Assembly: GCA_048887145.1 (NCBI GenBank)
Contig: JBHLKA010000003.1
Span: forward strand, 1 to 54,828
DNA length: 54,828 bases
From: Candidatus Hodarchaeota archaeon
GTDB lineage: Archaea; Asgardarchaeota; Lokiarchaeia; Sigyniarchaeales; SOKP01
Direction: 5' to 3'
Below the pieces are notes generated by a model that did no database searches, had not been told where the DNA came from, and worked only from the letters and a program-made list of their open reading frames with translations. Position 1 is the first letter of the stretch, and every line of letters begins with the position of its first letter. Positions 133 through 54,828 of this stretch are shown piece by piece. A program made the translations under genes and the position numbers.

Positions 133-1659
133 ATGGCAATACCCCTCCCTGGAACATCGGTAATTCTCGATATCGGGTCTGCCTATACCAAAATAGGCTT
201 TGCTGGCGAGCCAGGTCCGCGTTTTGTCTTTCCCACAATTACTGGAACAGAGAAATATAAAGCTGTAATGGTGGATGTAAGTGCCAGAAATATATATGTC
301 GGAAATGATGCTGCAAAGATGCGTGGAGTTTTAAAGATCAAACGCCCTATCGAAAGGGGAGCAATAATGGATTGGAATGATTTTTATGAAATTTTAAATT
401 ATTGCTTTTATTCACTTTTAAGAATCCCTGATCTTTCTCAGTATCCTGTTTTATATACGGAGCCACCATTTTTACAGAAAGAAACTAAAGAATATATTGC
501 ACGAGTATTATTTGAAACTCACAGAGTGAAAAGCCTAATAATGGTTCCTACGCCTATATTATCCATGTTTAGTGTAGGATTAACTTCAGGTTTAATCCTT
601 GAAAGTGGAGATGGTATTACTTGGATTGTTCCAATCATTAATGGCCAAATTATTGATCAATCCGTACAAAAGTTAACATTAGGAGGTACTGACGTTAATC
701 AATATCTGAAAAATTTGCTAATGAGAGAAGGTATTCATATAGAATCTAGTGCTGTTGATGAAATTATAAAAGATATGAAAGAAAAGAATTGTTATTTCGT
801 ATTGGATCCAAAAAAACCTCCAAAACAAGATGAAAGATTTAATATTGCTATGCCAGATGGTTCTACTATAAATATTCCACATTATATTTTTCATGAGGCA
901 CCTGAAGTACTATTCCAACCTAATTTAGTGGGATATCCGATAAGTAATATTCCTCAAGCTATTATTACAAGTCTACAAGGGATTGATAAATATTATTGGA
1001 GTGAATTATTATCACATATGGTTATTTCAGGTGGAAATTTTTCATACTCTGGTTTTGAAGCAAGGTTAAGAATAGAATTAACAAAGCTACTCCCTCAATT
1101 AGGAAAAATTCCTAAACCGAAAAAACAGAGCCCTAAGGCTAAGGAAAAGACGAATCTAAAGCCAATTGAAGGTTCGAAGAAAAAGAAAGATAATTGTCCT
1201 CACTGTGGAATCCTTGTAGATTTATCTGATGAAAAAGAATTGTGTCCTAATTGTGGTGGTAGAATTGCATTACCAGAGCTTTCTATTAATATAAAAAAAA
1301 CTAGTAAAAAGGCTCCCGTCATTGATGGTAAACTCTTATGTCCTCATTGTGGAAAGGAAATAACTGATATCGACTCTCTCTTTTGTCCATATTGTGGAAA
1401 AAACGTAGAATCACCCGATTTAGAAGAGATATCAAAAAAAGTTATTGATGAAGCACCTCCAGCTAAAGAGTTTGCTGGTTTTTATGATTCCTCAGAGGAA
1501 ATCCTTAGATTCTATGTTCCCGATAATCTTGAATATGCCATTTTTAGTGGAGCAACAATTTTAGGAACACTTCCCTCATTTCAAGGGTTATTTATTACCC
1601 ATGAGCAATTTCTTTCCAATAGTGATCTTTTATACAAAGATATAAGCGAAATTTTTTAG
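133..1659 (+). CDS. Actin-related protein (Asgard ARP) with inserted double zinc-ribbon domain
   Basis: Actin motifs ILDIGSAYTKIGFAG, PIERG, VLYTEPP, LESGDG, KEKNCY, PEVLFQP, VISGG and a C-terminal GATILGTLPSFQGLFIT. An insert carries CPHCG..CPNCGG and CPHCG..CPYCG. Confidence 0.93.
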   Translation: MAIPLPGTSVILDIGSAYTKIGFAGEPGPRFVFPTITGTEKYKAVMVDVSARNIYVGNDAAKMRGVLKIKRPIERGAIMDWNDFYEILNYCFYSLLRIPDLSQYPVLYTEPPFLQKETKEYIARVLFETHRVKSLIMVPTPILSMFSVGLTSGLILESGDGITWIVPIINGQIIDQSVQKLTLGGTDVNQYLKNLLMREGIHIESSAVDEIIKDMKEKNCYFVLDPKKPPKQDERFNIAMPDGSTINIPHYIFHEAPEVLFQPNLVGYPISNIPQAIITSLQGIDKYYWSELLSHMVISGGNFSYSGFEARLRIELTKLLPQLGKIPKPKKQSPKAKEKTNLKPIEGSKKKKDNCPHCGILVDLSDEKELCPNCGGRIALPELSINIKKTSKKAPVIDGKLLCPHCGKEITDIDSLFCPYCGKNVESPDLEEISKKVIDEAPPAKEFAGFYDSSEEILRFYVPDNLEYAIFSGATILGTLPSFQGLFITHEQFLSNSDLLYKDISEIF

Positions 1660-41081: not shown

Positions 41082-41543
41082 ATGACCGAAAAAGTTATTG
41101 TTACGAATAAAGGTTTCATTCGGGCAGAATTTGACTTCTGGGTGGGTCAATATCTTGATAAATTTTATGATAACCTTGAAAATAAGAAATTTATTGGAAA
41201 TAAATGCCCAAAATGCAGTAAAGTGTTTGTACCTCCAAGAAAAATATGTGGCAACTGTAATGAAGTGATTCCTCTTGAAGGGAATTGGGTTGATTTGCCT
41301 GAAACTGGAACATTAATGAATTACACAATAACTCATTACAAAGTAAATGATAGAGCATTTAGGAAAGTGAAGAAACCTCAAATAATAGGCATGATTCAAA
41401 TTGATGGAAGTAATACAGCTATTATTTACCGATTATTAGACTTAGAACCAAATGAAATCAAATTAGGGATGAAATTAAAAGTTGAGTGGGAAGAAAAAAC
41501 AAAAGGAGACCCTTCAGATATAAAGGGTTTCGTAAAACTATAG
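41082..41543 (+). CDS. DUF35 Zn-ribbon/OB-fold protein
   Basis: GNKCPKC..FVPPRKICGNC, GTLMNYT, IKLGMKLKVEW. Confidence 0.92.
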   Translation: MTEKVIVTNKGFIRAEFDFWVGQYLDKFYDNLENKKFIGNKCPKCSKVFVPPRKICGNCNEVIPLEGNWVDLPETGTLMNYTITHYKVNDRAFRKVKKPQIIGMIQIDGSNTAIIYRLLDLEPNEIKLGMKLKVEWEEKTKGDPSDIKGFVKL

Positions 41544-41558
41544 AGGGTGATAAAATCA

Positions 41559-42701
41559 ATGCAAAAAGTTGGTATTGTTGGATATAATCAAGTGAAATTA
41601 TACTCAAATGCTAATTATGGAAGATATGAGATGATATTTGAGGCGGTACGAGGTGCTCTAGACAGCGCAGGTCTCAAAAAGAAAGATATAACGACTGTAG
41701 TCTCTGCTACTAATGATTATTATGATGGTCGAACCATCTCAAATGCACTAACTGTAGAGCCTGGAGGAGGATACTTAGAAGATGAATCTAAGGTTGAAAT
41801 GGATGGTGCTCATGCTGTATTATATGGATTAATGCGGATATTATCTGGTAATCATAGTTTGGCAGTTGTTTGGGGTGGGAGTATGGCATCATGTTTTCCA
41901 TACCATACTGCTCGATTATATGAAACAGATCCTATATGGGAGCGACCATTAGCCTATGTAAATGATATAAGTTCTTCTGGCTTTCAGATGAGAGCTTATA
42001 TGGAAAAATTTGGGGTAAGTGCTGAAGATATTGCTAAAATCGCTGTTAAAAATAGAAAAAATGCTGCAAAAAACCAATTAGCTTTAGCAGAAGCTCAACA
42101 TCCAGATTTAAAAATTAAAGACGTTTTAGAATCTGAGATTTATGCGGATCCAGTAACAGAATTAATGGTTGCTCAACCCTGTGATGGTGTAGCTGCTTTA
42201 TTATTGGCACCAGAAAAACAAGCATTAAAGATTACAGATAATCCAGTTTGGATTATAGGTGTGGGTTATAATCAAGAAACATATTATCTTGGAGAAAGGG
42301 ACTTATCTATTAGTAAATCCATGGAACTTGCAAGTAAAATGGCCTTTAATGCGGCTGGAGTTAAAGATCCTTTAAATGAAATTGATGTAGCTGAGTTATT
42401 TGAAGCATATGCTCATGAAGAGTTAATCCTTAGCGAAGCTATAGGATTTGCCGAAAAAGGTAAAGGGGGAGGTTTGAACTCTGAGATTGGTGGAGATTTG
42501 CCCATTAATCCCTCTGGAGGAGCTTTGGGGGGAAATCCACCCTGTGCAACTGGTTTAATAAGAATTATTGAAGCTGTTAAACAACTAAGAGGGGAGGCAA
42601 ATGGTTATCAAGTTAAGGGCGCCAAGAAAGCTATTGCTTCGGGTCAAATAGGATTGTGTGCCCAAAACAATATATTGTATGTATTAGAGGGAGGTAATTA
42701 A
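41559..42701 (+). CDS. SCP2-type thiolase-fold protein, Ltp4-like
   Basis: ESKVEMDGAH, DGVAALL, DVAEL, INPSGG, ATGLIRIIEA..QLRG. SD GAGGGTGAT upstream of ATG 41559. Confidence 0.88.
   Translation: MQKVGIVGYNQVKLYSNANYGRYEMIFEAVRGALDSAGLKKKDITTVVSATNDYYDGRTISNALTVEPGGGYLEDESKVEMDGAHAVLYGLMRILSGNHSLAVVWGGSMASCFPYHTARLYETDPIWERPLAYVNDISSSGFQMRAYMEKFGVSAEDIAKIAVKNRKNAAKNQLALAEAQHPDLKIKDVLESEIYADPVTELMVAQPCDGVAALLLAPEKQALKITDNPVWIIGVGYNQETYYLGERDLSISKSMELASKMAFNAAGVKDPLNEIDVAELFEAYAHEELILSEAIGFAEKGKGGGLNSEIGGDLPINPSGGALGGNPPCATGLIRIIEAVKQLRGEANGYQVKGAKKAIASGQIGLCAQNNILYVLEGGN
42690..42695 (+). promoter_or_regulatory. Shine-Dalgarno site
   Basis: GGAGGT, 8 nt upstream of ATG 42704. Confidence 0.7.
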
Positions 42702-42703
42702 AA

Positions 42704-43951
42704 ATGGGAAGACAAGTTTGTGTAGCAAGTGCAGGGTTTAGTGAGCATGCTTCGAAGCGCTCAGATGTAAACATGCCGGAGCTAGTTAGTGAAGCAATAG
42801 AAGATTGTTTAAAAAGAGTTCCAAGTCTTGACATTAAAGATATTGATGCTTTTGTAAATGGGAATATGCCTGCGTTTGAAGGATCAAATATTCCTGAATT
42901 ATGGATGACAGATTGGATGGGTGCCAGAAATAAACCATTACTGCGAGTCACTACAGGAGGTACTACAGGTGGTTCAGTAGCTATTGCTGGATATTACTCG
43001 GTTGCTGCTGGGATACCTGGTGTTGATACTGTGTTAGCTATCGCTTTTGAACAGCAATCTCAAGGTGATACAAGTGTTGGGCTTGCTAGTGTAGCTTATG
43101 GAGAAATATCAGTCATGAACTCACTAGGTATTCCTTATGATCAATTAACACTACTTCTATCTGGTGGTGCTGCTATAGGAATTGCTTCTTATCAAGCCAC
43201 TAATTATATGCGTAAAAGCAAGATTACTGAAGAAGATTTAGCTAGAGTTGTTGTTCAAAATAGGCATAATGCTGCAAAAACATGGTGGGCTCATCTTAAA
43301 ATGCCTGATCTCACGATTGAGGATGTTTTAGATACACCCTATATTTCGTATCCTTTAAGATATGGAATGGTTTGTCCAGCATCCGATGGAGCATGCGCAA
43401 TGCTATTTACAACCGAAGAAAAAGCGAAAAGTTTGTGTGACATTCCCGTTTATGTAAATGGTGTAGGCAGTGTAGCAAATGAGACAGCTCTCATTGGGTA
43501 TGGGGGTAGTGGATCGGGGCAATTAGACCTATCTGAACAATTGGGTGCTCAAAAAACTTCTGAAATAGCTTTTAAGCAAGCAGGTATTCGTTTTCCGAGA
43601 AAAGAAGTTGATTATGCTGAAGTTTATTCACCATTTCCAAACCAAGAACTTATGTGGGTTGAAAAACTGGGTCTATTTGAAGAAAACACCTCGCCAAAAA
43701 TGTACGAAACAGGAGTAACCGCTTTAAATGGTGAATTGCCCATCAATTGTTCAGGAGGTGTTAATTCTACAAATGCCATAGGAGCCTCAGCATTAGAAAG
43801 ACCCGCTGAAGCAGCTTTACAAATTATGGGAAAGGCTAGTAATCAAGTCCCTAAAACAGTACATACGTCACTGGGACATGGATGGGGGGGTTATGTTAAC
43901 TTAGTCACAATGATGGTAATGGCTGATGAACCAGCTAGAAAATATAAATAA
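42704..43951 (+). CDS. SCP2-type thiolase-fold protein, Ltp3-like
   Basis: KPLLRVTTGGTTGGS, CPASDGACA, AEVYSPF, INCSGG, AIGASAL, HGWGG. Confidence 0.88.
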   Translation: MGRQVCVASAGFSEHASKRSDVNMPELVSEAIEDCLKRVPSLDIKDIDAFVNGNMPAFEGSNIPELWMTDWMGARNKPLLRVTTGGTTGGSVAIAGYYSVAAGIPGVDTVLAIAFEQQSQGDTSVGLASVAYGEISVMNSLGIPYDQLTLLLSGGAAIGIASYQATNYMRKSKITEEDLARVVVQNRHNAAKTWWAHLKMPDLTIEDVLDTPYISYPLRYGMVCPASDGACAMLFTTEEKAKSLCDIPVYVNGVGSVANETALIGYGGSGSGQLDLSEQLGAQKTSEIAFKQAGIRFPRKEVDYAEVYSPFPNQELMWVEKLGLFEENTSPKMYETGVTALNGELPINCSGGVNSTNAIGASALERPAEAALQIMGKASNQVPKTVHTSLGHGWGGYVNLVTMMVMADEPARKYK

Positions 43952-43956
43952 AAGAT

Positions 43957-43962
43957 GGAGGT
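43957..43962 (+). promoter_or_regulatory. Shine-Dalgarno site
   Basis: GGAGGT, 8 nt upstream of ATG 43971. Confidence 0.7.
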
Positions 43963-43970
43963 AATATAAA

Positions 43971-44501
43971 ATGTCTAAAAGAACGTTAAGAAAGTCAATG
44001 GAATATATTAAAAAAGAATATATTAGAACAAGAACCATACCAGCAAGTTGGTATTTATCTAGCTATAAATTTAAATTTAATATTACTCATATGAAACCAT
44101 TTCTTGATAAATTAAAGCAGAAGAAGTTAGTTGGGCTACAATGTTCAAGTTGTAATAGGATTTATTTTCCACCACGCCAAATTTGTGGCAAGTGTCTAGT
44201 GAAACCTGATAGGTGGGTCGATTTGCGTGAAACTGGGAGAGTTGCTTCATTCACCGCAACTTATTTAAAGGATCCCGAAACTGGTAAAGTTTTAGAACGA
44301 CCTATTGTGTGTGCTCAATTAGATGGGGCGGATACTTCCTATCCAGCGCAATTGGATCCTGATATTGAATTTAAAGATACTTACATCGGTATGCCCATAA
44401 AGGTTCATTGGGCAGAGGATATTAAGGGTGGATTAATGGATATCGAATATTATGATCCTATTGAAGACAATGCTAAAGATTTACAACCTAAAGAGGATTA
44501 A
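43971..44501 (+). CDS. DUF35 Zn-ribbon/OB-fold protein
   Basis: GLQCSSC..FPPRQICGKC, GRVASFT, LDGAD, IGMPIKVHW. Confidence 0.92.
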   Translation: MSKRTLRKSMEYIKKEYIRTRTIPASWYLSSYKFKFNITHMKPFLDKLKQKKLVGLQCSSCNRIYFPPRQICGKCLVKPDRWVDLRETGRVASFTATYLKDPETGKVLERPIVCAQLDGADTSYPAQLDPDIEFKDTYIGMPIKVHWAEDIKGGLMDIEYYDPIEDNAKDLQPKED

Positions 44502-50164: not shown

Positions 50165-50677
50165 ATGGTTGAAAAAAAGTATGCTGGATTTTCGGAAGAA
50201 CATTTACGTAGAATTGCTTTAAAGAAAGTACAATTTAGAATGTCAATTAAAATACATATAGGGTTATTTATTGTGGTTAATACTTTATTGCTAATTTTGA
50301 ATTTACTTTTTAATCCAACTACACTATGGGTAATCTTTCCATTCTTTGGATGGTTAATCGGACTTGCTGAACACATAGCAACATATATTGTTTATGCTAA
50401 GGGAATATACCCTGGAGCCAAGAGAGCAGTATTTTTTCATTGTATTGCTTATATTTTTGTTATTTTGTATCTCTTCATTATAAACTTAATGGTAACTCCT
50501 GATTTTTACTGGGTACTATTTCCAACAATATTCTGGGGTACAGGGCTAGTTATTCATCTAATAGCATATTTCATATATCGTCGACCTTCTATTGATAGTG
50601 AAGGCACTTTAAAATCCAGAACTGAGCGTGCCGTTGAGAAAGAGTTAGAAAAAATGAAAAAAAAAATGAATCAGTAG
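50165..50677 (+). CDS. Tandem 2TM-domain membrane protein
   Basis: Two repeats of H..F..(V/I)N..W..FP...W..GL..H and a terminal AVEKELEK. Confidence 0.8.
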   Translation: MVEKKYAGFSEEHLRRIALKKVQFRMSIKIHIGLFIVVNTLLLILNLLFNPTTLWVIFPFFGWLIGLAEHIATYIVYAKGIYPGAKRAVFFHCIAYIFVILYLFIINLMVTPDFYWVLFPTIFWGTGLVIHLIAYFIYRRPSIDSEGTLKSRTERAVEKELEKMKKKMNQ

Positions 50678-50691
50678 GGTGTATTAAACTA

Positions 50692-51330
50692 GTGTGGCTT
50701 GGTAAATTCCTAAACCTTGAAGAAGATTTGGATGAATTAAAAGATAAAATAAAACGAGGAATTTTGGAAGATATCACTAGGAATAAAATTACACCTCTAG
50801 AATTTACTATTATTGAGACAATCTTCAATAGTAAGGAATTATCTGGATATGATCTTATATTAAATTTAAATAGACATTTTGCCGGTACTTGGGAAGCTCA
50901 ATCTGGTACAATTTATCCGATTTTATCAAAATTAAAAAAAGAAAATTTTTTAAAATCTAGACCTGTAAAAAGTCCAATAGGTCCAATTAGAAAAGTCTAT
51001 TCTTTAACAGAAGCGGGAGAACAAATCCTCAAAGTGAAAGTTAATAAAAACTTTGAAGATCAACTAAGATTTATTGAAAATTTTCTTGTCGAACTGTCTT
51101 CAATTTACATTCAATCATTCCCAGAAAATGAGAGAGAACAAAGGATCGAAGAAGTAAATAATAGTCTGAAAGAAATCCTCGAAAATGCAGTAAAAAAAAT
51201 ACCACCTACCCTTAATTTTAAAACAAAATGCTCAGAATGTGGAGCTGAAATTAATAGACAGGCATTATATTGCCCAAAATGTGGTATTTCTATAATTTCT
51301 AAAGATAAAAATACTAATTCCGCTGAATGA
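50692..51330 (+). CDS. PadR-family transcriptional regulator with C-terminal zinc ribbon
   Basis: SGYDL, GTIYPIL, RKVYSLTEAG; CSECG..CPKCG. Confidence 0.9.
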   Translation: MWLGKFLNLEEDLDELKDKIKRGILEDITRNKITPLEFTIIETIFNSKELSGYDLILNLNRHFAGTWEAQSGTIYPILSKLKKENFLKSRPVKSPIGPIRKVYSLTEAGEQILKVKVNKNFEDQLRFIENFLVELSSIYIQSFPENEREQRIEEVNNSLKEILENAVKKIPPTLNFKTKCSECGAEINRQALYCPKCGISIISKDKNTNSAE

Positions 51331-51441: not shown

Positions 51442-52014
51442 TTAAGTTTTTACTATTGCATTAACATAGAAAGATACTATGATAAGTGAGCCTCCTGTAA
51501 TAACGTATATTAATCTCCAATAAAATAGACCCAAAAAGTTAAAGATGATGAAAGAATAAAGTAGAAGGCCAAGAAAAACAACTATAGAGATTATTATATT
51601 AATTCTGTTTTCTTGTCTAGGGAATATGTTATTGAGGGAGAATTCATACATGATTGGAATTGAAAACCCACTGATAGGACCACCTATGATTGTTAAGATG
51701 ATATAGTGTTCGTATCTCCAAGTAAATGAGAAAAAAATAAGTAAGAATGCTGAAATGAGAATGAATATAATAAAGATCGAAGTATTTTGGATTTTCTCCT
51801 TGAGTTTAAAACTTACTATAAAAGCTACGAAAAAGAGTATAAAACTAATCGTACTAAAATCTGCTATAAGATAATTACTGAAAAACCAGGAATAATAATA
51901 CTCCGGATTTGAGGATAGCAAAACAAATGCTGTTATCATGTAAAAGGGTAATAGTAATACACTAAATACTGAAATAATATTTATGGTATGTTTTGTAATA
52001 TTTTTAATATTCAT
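51442..52014 (-). CDS. Hypothetical 6-TM membrane protein (half-MFS-like)
   Basis: Six hydrophobic helices; FPRQENR loop and YWRLIY resemble the N-terminal half of an MFS transporter. Confidence 0.6.
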   Translation of the reverse strand: MNIKNITKHTINIISVFSVLLLPFYMITAFVLLSSNPEYYYSWFFSNYLIADFSTISFILFFVAFIVSFKLKEKIQNTSIFIIFILISAFLLIFFSFTWRYEHYIILTIIGGPISGFSIPIMYEFSLNNIFPRQENRINIIISIVVFLGLLLYSFIIFNFLGLFYWRLIYVITGGSLIIVSFYVNAIVKT

Positions 52015-52115: not shown

Positions 52116-54176
52116 ATGTCTAAGCTATTCAAATTAAGGCTTTCTTTGATTCTATTAATAGTGGGTATAGGTTTAATACCAACTGCCTTTCTAGCTAAGG
52201 GGTATTTTCAAGATCAAGTTCCCGCCAATGTACCAGAAACGCTTTTAAAGCTCAAAAATGAAGGAATTTCATATGTAGAACAAGAATTTAAAGGATTATG
52301 TATTCCAGACCTTGTTCCCCTATTGGTGGAAGAAAAATTAATTGAAATTGAAGAAGATATTGCTAAAGTAAGAGATATTCCTAAATTTCTTAGATTTATA
52401 AGAAGTGAACTCATTAATAGTTTTCCTTCGATAATTAATGGGTCAAAAGCCGCAGGTGAAATAAACAACGTAATATCCTTGGTTCAAACGCAGAACTCTA
52501 CATCTCTGGAAATTGCTAGGAATAAATTTTTTAATAACTATACATTTCAAGATAATTATTCTACTCCGATTGAAGGTATTTCGGAGCGTATGATGGGTTC
52601 AGTTAGTCTTAATTATTCTGATATTGCTCAAGCAAGAATACTTGAAGGCTATACATATAATGGAACTCCCTATCCTGGAATAACTACTGATACTCGTCTT
52701 GGCGAAGGAATTAATGATTGGCTTGAATTTTATTCTCTTGCCGAGTCTGATCCTGGAAATCAGTCATTAATGGAACAAGTTTATAATTGTTCCTGGACAT
52801 CTGGTCAGTTACAGAATTTATCAGCTTATATAAAGAGTTACTTGTGGAACACGGTTGTAAAGAATTATTATGACTCTAAAGGGATTACAGATCCTACTGA
52901 ATTTGAATTTTGCGCTCAATGGGCCAATTTAAGCTTTTATATGAATTATATAAATTTGGATTATTTTAGTGAAGTAATTAATCAAACTTTATTTCCATAT
53001 GAAGCAGCAACAATTCTTGCTGGAATAATCATCACTCCAACAGGTATATCATTTTCATCAGCAAAAGATCTATGGAATTCAACTAATCCTTTATCATTTG
53101 TTAATGATACTGGCTTTTTAACATGGTTAAATGCTAGTACAGATGCGAGTTATCGACCGGGATTAACTTACGCTTTCAGTATAACATATGATCAAGTATT
53201 AAAAATTCTTACGTGGTTATTTAGCCCTGTAAAAGAGAATATCGTTCCAAATTTGATTAAATATCCTCAACCTTATGGTTATGGTATGAATACTACAGAA
53301 TATTCAAAGGTTTTGTTTTATGAACAGTGGGCAAATGGGACAGTTGTTGAAGATGGACTTGTACTCCATATTATAGGTAACATTACCTATAAAGGTATTG
53401 AAGCAGGCATTCCTACTAAAACCAATATTTCATTAGAAGCAACCCGAGCTCTTTTTGATGAAACCAATACCTCATCATTCATAAACAGGTATGGAATCTT
53501 GAAATGGATTGAAGCCTCAGAAGGAGATGTTACAGTTCAAAATGAATTAATCTCAAAATTTAAGTTAAATATAGTTCAAATAAATTTAACCAATAATTGG
53601 CTATTTTCCACTCTTCGATATGATGTACTACCTTATATTTCATTCCGATATCCTCTAGTAAAGTGTATGGGAGTTAGAAGAACGACGTTAGACTATGCAG
53701 AAATTGAATTTTATCGTCAATGGGCAAACGGGTCGATATTTACTGAAGGAATTGATATTGCACCTTTCTTATTGTTAGAATCTCCGATTAAAAATTTTGA
53801 GGCCGGAATACCAACTCTGAATTGCACCCAATCAAAATTATTATGGGATGAAGATAATTACTACTCATTTGTTAATCCAAAAGGAATATCTATTTGGTAT
53901 GAAGCTTTAGGATTTCCCAATCACAGAAATACGCTTAAATCATCTACTACCAATTTTAATCTAACAGATAGTGAATTAAATTCTATCTTAGATTGGTTAA
54001 TCTATGTTAGAGATAATTTAACTCTTCAATATACACTAGTAAAAAATAATTTACCGGCAAATTATTATATACTAGCTGATTGGTATTTTATGGGAATGAT
54101 GATAGGTGCTATTGGATTTTCAAGTGTTGGTTTGATAGTTGGTGTGATAGTAATAATGTTCCAAAAAAAAAGATGA
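52116..54176 (+). CDS. Two-TM surface protein with three ~133-aa QWAN repeats
   Basis: N- and C-terminal hydrophobic helices; QWAN at 52917, 53325 and 53718, each followed by EA.., L(W/F)..N..SF(V/I)N..G...W and a WL-terminated helix; many N-x-S/T sequons. Confidence 0.8.
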   Translation: MSKLFKLRLSLILLIVGIGLIPTAFLAKGYFQDQVPANVPETLLKLKNEGISYVEQEFKGLCIPDLVPLLVEEKLIEIEEDIAKVRDIPKFLRFIRSELINSFPSIINGSKAAGEINNVISLVQTQNSTSLEIARNKFFNNYTFQDNYSTPIEGISERMMGSVSLNYSDIAQARILEGYTYNGTPYPGITTDTRLGEGINDWLEFYSLAESDPGNQSLMEQVYNCSWTSGQLQNLSAYIKSYLWNTVVKNYYDSKGITDPTEFEFCAQWANLSFYMNYINLDYFSEVINQTLFPYEAATILAGIIITPTGISFSSAKDLWNSTNPLSFVNDTGFLTWLNASTDASYRPGLTYAFSITYDQVLKILTWLFSPVKENIVPNLIKYPQPYGYGMNTTEYSKVLFYEQWANGTVVEDGLVLHIIGNITYKGIEAGIPTKTNISLEATRALFDETNTSSFINRYGILKWIEASEGDVTVQNELISKFKLNIVQINLTNNWLFSTLRYDVLPYISFRYPLVKCMGVRRTTLDYAEIEFYRQWANGSIFTEGIDIAPFLLLESPIKNFEAGIPTLNCTQSKLLWDEDNYYSFVNPKGISIWYEALGFPNHRNTLKSSTTNFNLTDSELNSILDWLIYVRDNLTLQYTLVKNNLPANYYILADWYFMGMMIGAIGFSSVGLIVGVIVIMFQKKR

Positions 54177-54300: not shown

Positions 54301-54828
54301 TTACTCTGTATATATTCCATACTTTTTAAATACTTTAATTAATTCTTCACTCGCTAAAAGTTTCATAATATCTGACATTGGAGCTAAAACTTCTTCTTTC
54401 TTTAATTCTCTTTTATTACTAATTCTTCCTTCTTTTACTTCAAAAGCACTTTGCGCCCAACTATACTCGTCATTAAAGGTAAACCAAATATCTTTATATG
54501 CACCTTCCTGTCCACCATCTCTTGCAAGTGGTTTTTCTTCGATGGGAACTTCTGGGTCTTGTAAATAACACCAATCCAAAATGACCCATTCAAAATTTCT
54601 CTCGGAATCAGGTCTATCAGCCAGATATATACAATATGCATGCCCTCCAAGTTCAGAATCAGATGGCGCAAAAACAGGATCCGCTATAACCTGTGCAGCA
54701 CATACTTTAACCCGCCATGAAGGAATTCCAGCGTTAATCAATAAACTCGCAATAAGAATAGCACCATCTTCACAATCTCCTATCTCAGATTGAATCGATT
54801 CGAAAGGAAATTGCCAAAATTCTGGGCA
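54301..54828 (-). CDS. Transglutaminase-like cysteine peptidase domain protein (5' end outside the window)
   Basis: The frame is open to the window edge: EFWQFPFE..GDCEDGAILIASLL, GGHAYC, WVILDW give a Cys-His-Asp triad. Confidence 0.85.
   Translation of the reverse strand, partial: CPEFWQFPFESIQSEIGDCEDGAILIASLLINAGIPSWRVKVCAAQVIADPVFAPSDSELGGHAYCIYLADRPDSERNFEWVILDWCYLQDPEVPIEEKPLARDGGQEGAYKDIWFTFNDEYSWAQSAFEVKEGRISNKRELKKEEVLAPMSDIMKLLASEELIKVFKKYGIYTE

Follow-up and report, generated by a model that had tools for sequence, protein, structure and literature searches.

The window, a stretch of 54,828 nucleotides, contains at 52116..54176 (+ strand) a complete ORF whose 686-aa product (P0001) is a two-TM protein built of repeats of a domain, the QWAN module, which profile comparisons identify as homologous to the insert at the apex of long-form CD36/LIMP-2-family proteins; the CD36 beta-barrel is absent. 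We consider it fairly probable that P0001 derives from the CD36 gene family of Asgard archaea, having lost the barrel and retained the apical "crown", and that it serves as a fast-evolving recognition or adhesion module rather than as a lipid channel. The QWAN module has no Pfam entry and is an uncatalogued domain, and a literature search found no paper on a QWAN repeat surface protein. The host is an Asgard archaeon, in agreement with the original prediction: the close relatives are titled Promethearchaeota and the genome encodes eukaryote-like actins. Profilin (PF00235), sought as a further Asgard marker, gave no match, a result that carries no information since the controls were likewise silent.

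Architecture of P0001 and its repeat unit

P0001 has the topology of the CD36 class, i.e., two TM helices around an ectodomain. Kyte-Doolittle values above 1.6 in 19-aa windows are restricted to aa 1-31 and 657-684, and these two regions correspond to the terminal TM helices that had been predicted: TM helix 1, of the signal-anchor type (about aa 5-29, 52128..52202, +; helix 3-37 in the AF2 model), and TM helix 2 (about aa 657-682, 54084..54161, +; AF2 helix 650-685), which is followed by QKKR. Basic residues are present at either end of the protein (MSKLFKLR..., ...QKKR), which under the positive-inside rule fits cytoplasmic termini, that is, an N-in/C-in orientation with the loop outside; P0001 is predicted to be displayed at the cell surface. 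TM helix 1 is followed by a long-helix stalk region (about aa 30-130, 52203..52505, +), modeled by AF2 as helices 39-57, 63-86 and 88-126.

The motif QWAN occurs in P0001 at aa 268, 404 and 535, which reproduces the originally reported spacings of 136 and 131 aa, and the strings on which that report was based (FYEQWANGT, TNISLEATRALFDETNTSSFINRYGILKWIEASEGD and QINLTNNWL) are all found in the protein. The three units are R1 (aa 255-383, QWANLS, 52878..53264, +), R2 (aa 387-508, QWANGT, 53274..53639, +) and R3 (aa 520-638, QWANGS, 53673..54029, +), matched by the family HMM with E values of 2.4e-34, 1.1e-42 and 6.2e-37, respectively. In pairwise blastp comparisons, the similarity among the units (28-35% identity; E values of 4.4e-13 for R1-R2, 1.4e-11 for R1-R3 and 9.4e-18 for R2-R3) is far beyond chance. 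The degenerate earlier copy that had also been proposed, R0 (about aa 131-252, 52506..52871, +), is supported in part. The family HMM matches its C-terminal half (aa 197-248, i-E 0.037), and the AF2 model gives R0 a hairpin (178-187) and then three helices, the arrangement also seen in the clear units; however, the best pairwise blastp E value against the other repeats is only 0.37. An equivalent half-unit stands before the first QWAN unit in the CD36 proteins P0121 and P0122.

The units of P0001 comprise approximately 125-135 aa each, with the motif FY-QWAN-G-T ... GFE-G-P ... LWD-x-N-x-x-SF-x-N-x-x-GI-x-W ... IL-x-WL; across the family, the consensus of 245 units has conserved HMM positions Q18, W19, N21, E45, L60, W61, G74, W78 and W109. 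The AF2 model of a single unit (R2; pLDDT 87.8, pTM 0.79) consists of a helix, a beta-hairpin and four helices, and all three units of P0001 agree with this description of the module. The model of the complete protein (pLDDT 91.0, pTM 0.76) is made up of helices apart from three 2-stranded hairpins, and it contains no barrel.

Structure searches yielded no informative relative. For the whole model, Foldseek against the PDB gave a best E value of 0.035 with TM below 0.13, and in the VIA-wide search (best Z 9.4) only generic helical hairpins that pair the two terminal helices were retrieved. The single-unit model reached a best E value of 5.6 with Foldseek and a best Z of 4.4 in the VIA-wide search, where no chain attained Z >= 5; the homeodomain-like three-helix matches in the latter (Z <=4.4) were judged generic. 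The ESM Atlas, queried with the whole protein and with aa 251-655 among named entries, produced no usable feature match, all structure rows having TM <= 0.35. Such weak or absent structural matches of the QWAN unit do not amount to proof of a new fold.

The loop (aa 31-655) contains 24 N-x-S/T sequons compared with a mean of 8.0 (sd 2.5) in shuffled sequences, and 24 were reached in 0 of 5000 shuffles. Of the window's 32 ORFs with 200 aa or more, P0001 has the greatest sequon density (3.5 per 100 aa; median 0.45), and in 74% of the 245 units the QWAN motif itself forms a QWAN-x-S/T sequon. Together with the STT3/AglB encoded in the same genome, these features favor exposure at the cell surface, and P0001 is probably N-glycosylated; of the glycosylated loop originally described, the excess of sequons is an observation and the glycosylation a prediction from it.

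Homology to the apex insert of CD36-family proteins

A Pfam scan of P0001 returned 0 families at E <= 10, and the protein has no sequence match in the PDB. A phmmer search of 1.84e9 (1.84 billion) representative proteins retrieved 135 relatives, 16 of which contain PF01130 (CD36) split in two around the repeat (14 of 30 proteins in the first Pfam scan and 2 of 105 in the second; the same 16 were recovered with local CD36-N and CD36-C HMMs in a scan that covered the relatives, P0001 standing outside that set). A repeat HMM of 129 positions built from the 245 units of 108 stand-alone proteins, with the CD36-bearing ones left out, matches all 16 CD36 relatives (full-sequence E values from 8e-58 to 5e-11, Z = 1.8e9) and also the CD36 homolog encoded in the same genome as P0001. 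In this homolog and in the 12 of the 16 relatives that show both barrel halves, all repeat matches are located between the halves. Furthermore, hhalign aligned the family with archaeal long-form CD36 over 566 columns (probability 100%, E 1.4e-52), pairing aa 27-636 of P0001 with the apex-insert columns 201-834, so that the stalk corresponds to the start of the insert. Thus, the homology of the QWAN repeats to the CD36/LIMP-2-family insert, proposed in the original prediction, is borne out at the level of sequence profiles. The profile match was obtained with the archaeal CD36 insert; no fold match was found in the PDB.

The CD36 homolog of the same genome is located on a different contig (C93, L003:163-2547) and is a true member of the family: a protein of 795 aa with two TM helices. 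Its matches to LIMP-2 (E 2e-36) and CD36 (4e-33) fall into two segments separated by an insert of ~290 aa, which is placed near chain residues 116-121 of 4Q4B. TM helix 1 and the juxtamembrane region of P0001 are 35% identical to those of this protein over 34 aa (BLASTP E 5e-5 in a single comparison). Together with P0067, P0068, P0071, P0076 and P0121, it represents the Asgard long-form CD36 proteins, which share with P0001 the two terminal TM helices, a similar TM helix 1, the stalk with QWAN-type units and the phylum, and differ in that the PF01130 barrel flanks the module on both sides. P0001 has three full units, whereas the C93 protein has one degenerate half-unit.

The absence of the CD36 barrel motifs, noted already in the original prediction, is confirmed by both the Pfam scan and the barrel-free AF2 model. 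The lipid tunnel of CD36-family proteins is formed by the barrel, and because this barrel is missing, P0001 is predicted to have no intramolecular lipid tunnel. The possibility that P0001 handles lipids or sterols in the manner of CD36, SR-B1 and LIMP-2, with uptake or export through the protein, could be entertained on the strength of its homology to a part of these proteins, and lipid or particle binding was suggested in the original prediction, but the shared part is the apex alone and the tunnel-forming element is lacking, which makes this function very improbable. The human proteins LIMP-2/SCARB2, CD36 and SR-B1 (PDB 4F7B, 4Q4B, 5LGD) have the same hairpin membrane topology; however, they possess the lipid tunnel, a short bundle of three helices forms their apex, the ligand-recognition site, the place of which is taken by the QWAN module, and P0001 has no detectable sequence or fold similarity to them.

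The original prediction likened the repeats specifically to the insert of Dictyostelium LmpA, which presumably carries QWAN-type motifs (FYQQWANAT ... QIDMILNWW). The LmpA of Dictyostelium discoideum (GenBank AF124329) is a protein of 779 aa with two TM helices and 19 sequons, and its inserted sequence, roughly 480 aa at the apex position, extends from about aa 160 to about aa 640 (Karakesisoglou 1999, PMC2148220). The matched CD36 proteins carry the module at this position, with no amoebozoan protein identified among them. LmpA, LmpB and LmpC of Dictyostelium and the protist long-form SR-B proteins, compared here by their partial published descriptions only, resemble P0001 in the two-TM topology and the many sequons but, unlike P0001, keep the CD36 barrel. 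The apex expansions of protist SR-B proteins, which occupy the same position as the QWAN module, have been described as multi-helical in structure and as "lacking homology to known domains" (Boohar 2023, PMC10715195).

Among the CD36 matches that can be placed, at least five (P0071, P0121, P0076, P0068 and P0067) are archaeal. The data suggest that some others (P0107, P0112, P0118, P0122, P0124 and P0125) might be eukaryotic; when P0124 and an alignment of eukaryote-like CD36 proteins were used as queries, homology searches yielded 2 and 3 matches, respectively, and the search of metagenome contigs with P0122 and P0175 for mRNA features found no locus encoding a relative.

Genomic context, distribution and divergence

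Upstream of the P0001 gene lies a divergently transcribed gene for a multi-TM protein of 190 aa without a Pfam family (51442..52014, -), which is part of the conserved context; the neighboring genes, which code for a 2TM protein, PadR plus a zinc ribbon, and DUF4332 plus a weak transglutaminase-like match, provide no functional link. The five-gene neighborhood is shared by four further genomes of the genus. The syntenic orthologs are 39-67% identical to P0001, compared with 72-93% for the flanking PadR gene and 80-95% for the downstream gene, and the 190-aa protein is also fast-evolving (40-78% identity). P0001 thus evolves fast, as gauged by these identities and not by dN/dS.

In a sample of 400 genomes of the phylum, which is uneven in that 134 come from one family, the repeat was found in 95 genomes and CD36 in 28, the latter spread across 5 families. 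It might be argued that the gene is foreign, either because the MAG is contaminated with eukaryotic DNA or because the gene was acquired very recently from a protist, given the patchy presence of CD36 in the 28 of 400 Asgard genomes and the fact that, to our knowledge, CD36 is otherwise known from eukaryotes. However, the conserved neighborhood, the occurrence of the family in so many Asgard genomes, the GC content of the gene (0.31, like the 0.24-0.39 of the rest of the window), the uninterrupted ORF and the archaeal-type neighbors make a foreign origin hardly credible. Contamination in particular is effectively refuted by the synteny, GC content, neighbors and Asgard spread.

Outside the order to which the window belongs, the repeat is represented by a single match per genome in 6 genomes, and in 5 of these it sits inside a CD36 ORF (its location in the sixth, G090, falls outside the listing). 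Of the 41 genomes of the genus, 26 carry the repeat and 5 carry CD36; the 15 genomes without a repeat match are incomplete. In families f2 and f4, the repeat is found in 5 of 14 and 1 of 4 genomes, and CD36 in 0 of 14 and 0 of 4. This distribution bears on the possibility that P0001 is an obligate co-receptor or decoy for the CD36 of the same cell, pairing crown to crown and handing ligand over to the tunnel. The presence of both proteins in the genome, with the module and the TM helix 1 similarity in common, would fit such a partnership, but most genomes that carry the stand-alone repeat lack CD36 and the two genes reside on different contigs, so that obligate pairing appears improbable.

Many paralogs occur per genome (up to 10 matches), with variable repeat numbers and lengths between about 500 and 1600 aa. 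Along with the high sequon density and the lack of a recognizable binding fold in the QWAN unit, this multiplicity would suit a coat protein of the glycocalyx or S-layer-like type with a purely structural role, whose glycosylated helical repeats passively space and protect the membrane without a specific ligand. Yet the module is located at the CD36 apex, the region tied to ligand recognition in the literature (Boohar 2023, PMC10715195), the orthologs diverge much faster than the neighboring genes, and the absence of the repeat from 15 of 41 genomes of the genus, incomplete as they are, would be odd for an essential coat. We regard a purely passive coat as rather unlikely. The sequencing runs containing the gene, none of RNA among those listed, comprise 7 DNA runs from sediment metagenomes.

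Candidate function and origin of the crown

Under the reading favored here, P0001 would be a hairpin-anchored, N-in/C-in surface protein, probably N-glycosylated. Its helical stalk, the degenerate R0 and the three full units would be exposed and serve in recognition or adhesion, the target being a ligand, a particle, a virus or the cell of a partner. As a derivative of the CD36 gene family, it would have kept the TM anchors and the crown and lost the lipid-tunnel barrel. Since the apex module is retained and the tunnel-forming barrel is not, a role in recognition or adhesion is suggested, by analogy with the apex of CD36, and P0001 is probably not lipid-conducting. The apex of CD36 is tied to ligand recognition in the literature (PMC10715195). 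Because most of the repeats outside the order sit in CD36 ORFs, in an unevenly sampled phylum, and TM helix 1 resembles that of the C93 protein over a short stretch, the direction of evolution appears to be from CD36 to the stand-alone form; the reverse, insertion of a stand-alone module into CD36, is also possible.

The module at the CD36 tip is a discrete domain that can be modeled with confidence. Loki-type Asgard archaea carry it abundantly, mounted on CD36 barrels as well as alone, and its existence without the lipid-tunnel barrel implies that recognition is separable from lipid conduction in the CD36 family. In PMC10715195, the variable tips of CD36/SR-B are described as lineage-specific, independently evolved inventions that have no known homologs, within a family treated as eukaryote-wide and linked to phagocytosis. 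Tentatively, and with more doubt than confidence, the QWAN crown could instead be an archaeal-born ligand-recognition domain that already capped SR-B/CD36 in the Asgard branch from which eukaryotes arose. If the crown is indeed ancestral, the protist apex expansions, in LmpA and others, would be homologous remnants of one crown, the metazoan three-helix apex would be a reduction, and the stand-alone forms would be Asgard surface receptors for recognition of a partner, prey or virus. A genuine link to eukaryotes would provide a testable archaeal root for a component of phagocytic receptors and a handle on what Asgard cells recognize at their surface. The Asgard long-form CD36 proteins themselves are annotated as "hypothetical protein [Promethearchaeota archaeon]" or "[Candidatus Hodarchaeota archaeon]".

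The QWAN-repeat protein and its family

The repeat protein, P0001, is encoded by a single complete ORF (52116–54176, + strand; 686 aa). Hydropathy windows above 1.6 are confined to aa 1–31 and 657–684, and the AF2 model contains long terminal helices (aa 3–37 and 650–685), in agreement with the two terminal TM helices originally proposed. The QWAN motif is found at aa 268, 404 and 535, that is, at the proposed spacings of 136 and 131 aa. Pairwise blastp comparisons of the three units yield E-values of 4.4e-13, 1.4e-11 and 9.4e-18 at 28–35% identity, and the family HMM matches each of them (R1, aa 255–383, E = 2e-34; R2, aa 387–508, E = 1e-42; R3, aa 520–638, E = 6e-37); by these measures the three units are evidently truly related. 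The degenerate earlier copy, R0, stands in part: its C-terminal half is covered by the family HMM (aa 197–248, i-E = 0.037) and the region is modelled as a hairpin with three helices, but the pairwise comparison is weak (E = 0.37). As a whole, the observation recorded for this ORF in the original prediction is confirmed.

In the AF2 model of the whole protein (40-sequence alignment; mean pLDDT 91.0, pTM 0.76), a helical stalk (aa 39–126) is followed by units built of a helix, a two-stranded hairpin and four helices. No barrel is present in this model and Pfam detects no families in P0001 at E ≤ 10, in line with the reported absence of CD36 barrel motifs. The single-unit model of R2 (28-sequence alignment) is of similar quality (pLDDT 87.8, pTM 0.79). 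Because the models are good and comparison of the whole-protein and single-unit models with PDB structures gave a convincing match for neither, the unit is a confidently predicted domain without a recognisable solved relative; the missing match falls short of proving a new fold.

A PDB sequence search with P0001 likewise produced no matches at E ≤ 10. A phmmer search of 1.84 billion representative proteins retrieved 135 relatives at E ≤ 1e-3, of which 90 reach E ≤ 1e-10 and 48 reach E ≤ 1e-30; they range from fragments to 2659 aa and differ in the number of matched stretches. Among 36 database matches, the named ones are ‘hypothetical protein [Promethearchaeota archaeon]’ (9) and ‘[Candidatus Hodarchaeota archaeon]’ (1). 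The Pfam scan, which took in all 135 relatives, identified CD36 (PF01130) in 16 (14/30 in one scan set and 2/105 in the other), LVIVD repeats in two and lone stray families in four (P0087, P0097 and P0133 above the gathering score, P0016 below it), with no Pfam family in the remaining 113 at the thresholds applied. Local HMMs for the N- and C-terminal CD36 halves recover the identical 16. On sequence grounds, P0001 belongs to a real family that lacks a catalogue entry. The LVIVD-containing proteins, P0074 (785 aa) and P0120 (804 aa), join QWAN-type units to these repeats (PF08309, E = 5e-52 and 2e-49, respectively), and therefore the module serves other extracellular architectures too. Many tandem QWAN units are present in a 1597-aa ORF of a congener (G023:C3:74300–77956), and a unit of one relative contains an in-frame TGA (G173:C20:35091–35453).

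The loop of P0001 contains 24 N-x-S/T sequons, compared to 8.0 ± 2.5 in composition-preserving shuffles (0/5000 attained 24), and its sequon density is the highest among the 32 window ORFs of at least 200 aa (3.5 sequons per 100 aa; median, 0.45). Given this enrichment and the presence of an STT3/AglB oligosaccharyltransferase gene in the same genome, glycosylation is plausible, and P0001 is a putative glycoprotein.

Relationship to the CD36 apex insert

The source genome, a 2.96-Mb MAG (82.5% complete), matches PF01130 on contig C93 in two stretches (E = 2.6e-60 and 2.9e-30), with no matches in 14 control genomes. The corresponding 795-aa protein (C93:1187–3574, equivalent to L003:163–2550, outside the window) has TM helices at the N- and C-terminus and archaeal-type gene neighbours, and is similar to the solved structures of LIMP-2 (E = 2e-36) and CD36 (E = 4e-33); this genome thus evidently encodes a true CD36 homologue. 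Its barrel stretches (aa 73–175 and 465–744) are separated by an insert of ~290 aa that includes one degenerate half QWAN unit (aa 404–470; stand-alone HMM, E = 3.6e-7 at Z = 1.8e9). TM1 and the juxtamembrane stretch are 35% identical to those of P0001 over 34 aa (E = 5e-5, single comparison).

PF01130 is matched as two stretches in 11 of the 14 CD36-bearing relatives of the first scan set, and the local HMMs find both halves in 12/16, the N half reaching profile position ~150 and the C half beginning at ~125–160. A repeat HMM of 129 positions, trained solely on proteins without the barrel (245 units from 108 proteins), matches 16/16 CD36 proteins (full-sequence E = 7.9e-58 to 4.6e-11, Z = library size), and wherever both halves are recognised (12 proteins), all of the units map to the stretch that separates them. 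The aligned units have in common the motifs QWAN-x-T, GFE-x-G-x-P, LWD-x-x-N-x-x-SF-x-N-x-x-G-x-x-x-W and IL-x-WL. In profile-profile comparison, the P0001 family (40 sequences) aligns with archaeal long-form CD36 over 566 columns (probability 100%, E = 1.4e-52), insert columns 201–834 of the latter corresponding to P0001 aa 27–636. Because of this span, the ectodomain in its entirety, with the stalk and R0, corresponds to the CD36 apex insert. The link, as judged from these alignments, is one of homology, beyond resemblance, and the proposed homology of an Asgard protein to CD36-family inserts is accordingly supported.

Distribution and direction of change

Among 400 genomes of the phylum, CD36 is encoded in 28, representing 10/85 genera and families f1, f12, f14, f15 and f17, and the repeat in 95 (f1, 82/134; f2, 5/14; f4, 1/4; f14, 2/3; f15, 3/12; f17, 1/2). 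In f2 and f4 the repeat is present and CD36 absent. Outside the order of the source genome, repeat-positive genomes have one match apiece, located inside a CD36 ORF in five of six (G082, G083, G091, G096 and G119; coordinates are unlisted for the sixth, G090). From this distribution we infer, on an uneven sample and an unrooted comparison, that the crown on CD36 is the older and more widespread arrangement, and that the stand-alone forms emerged and expanded in number within a single order. The opposite direction, with the stand-alone crown older, is possible.

All 11 CD36 loci found are archaeal. For those 80–92% identical to the C93 gene, the MAG titles read Promethearchaeota or Promethearchaeia, with ‘Candidatus Odinarchaeota’ in one case; the remoter ones are titled Heimdallarchaeota or just ‘archaeon’. 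The label of the exception (L018, JBHLPZ010000113.1; 92% identity) looks inconsistent, since the other close relatives are all titled Promethearchaeota. The source genome contains six actin-family matches (best E = 3e-130), a complement that fits an Asgard archaeon; one is an ORF of the window (154–1104, + strand; PF00022, E = 1.7e-63).

Among the 16 CD36 proteins, P0071 shares 90% identity with a locus from an archaeal MAG, and P0121, P0076, P0068 and P0067 are 35–53% identical to archaeal loci, whereas P0107, P0112, P0118, P0122, P0124 and P0125 reach just 26–32% with any archaeal locus compared. The contigs of P0122 and two relatives (2909, 2919 and 2927 nt for 938–939 aa) and of P0137 (2299 nt for 743 aa) hardly exceed the CDS, which suggests that they are transcripts and possibly derive from eukaryotes. 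Dictyostelium LmpA is described as a 779-aa protein that has 19 sequons and a pair of TM helices; its homology to CD36 extends to aa 160 and resumes at aa 640, the intervening part holding ‘several insertions’ (PMC2148220). The SR-B survey of Boohar et al. covers 165 eukaryotes and proposes independent origins with LmpA as exemplar; its main text has no word beginning ‘archaea’ or ‘prokaryot’ (PMC10715195). No published account of archaeal CD36 or of the QWAN module was found among the main texts of openly accessible papers.

Gene neighbourhood and predicted role

The repeat gene is preceded by genes for a 2TM protein and a PadR protein with a C-terminal zinc ribbon (50165–51330, + strand), a pair that adjoins it in four related genomes, and a multi-TM protein (− strand), and is followed by a DUF4332 protein gene (54301–54828, − strand, cut at the window end; whole in L011:3644–4939, − strand, 431 aa). 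The latter protein has an N-terminal DUF4332/HhH region, together with a transglutaminase-like match that is weak and below threshold (GDCEDG...H...D). The five-gene neighbourhood recurs in four further congeneric genomes, with orthologue identities of 39–67% for the repeat protein, 40–78% for the adjacent multi-TM protein, 72–93% for PadR and 80–95% for the downstream DUF4332 gene, which is far better conserved than the repeat gene. The neighbours point to no pathway; the rapid divergence, seen as identities, fits an exposed surface protein. Most likely, P0001 is a hairpin-anchored, putatively glycosylated and fast-evolving crown, lacking the lipid tunnel of the barrel, with a predicted role in recognition or adhesion.

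Elsewhere in the window, a four-gene cluster (41082–44501, + strand) encodes a ChsH2-type OB/zinc-ribbon protein, two thiolase-like proteins and a second zinc-ribbon protein, and coincides with the sole GC bump of the window (0.387 at 42001–44000).
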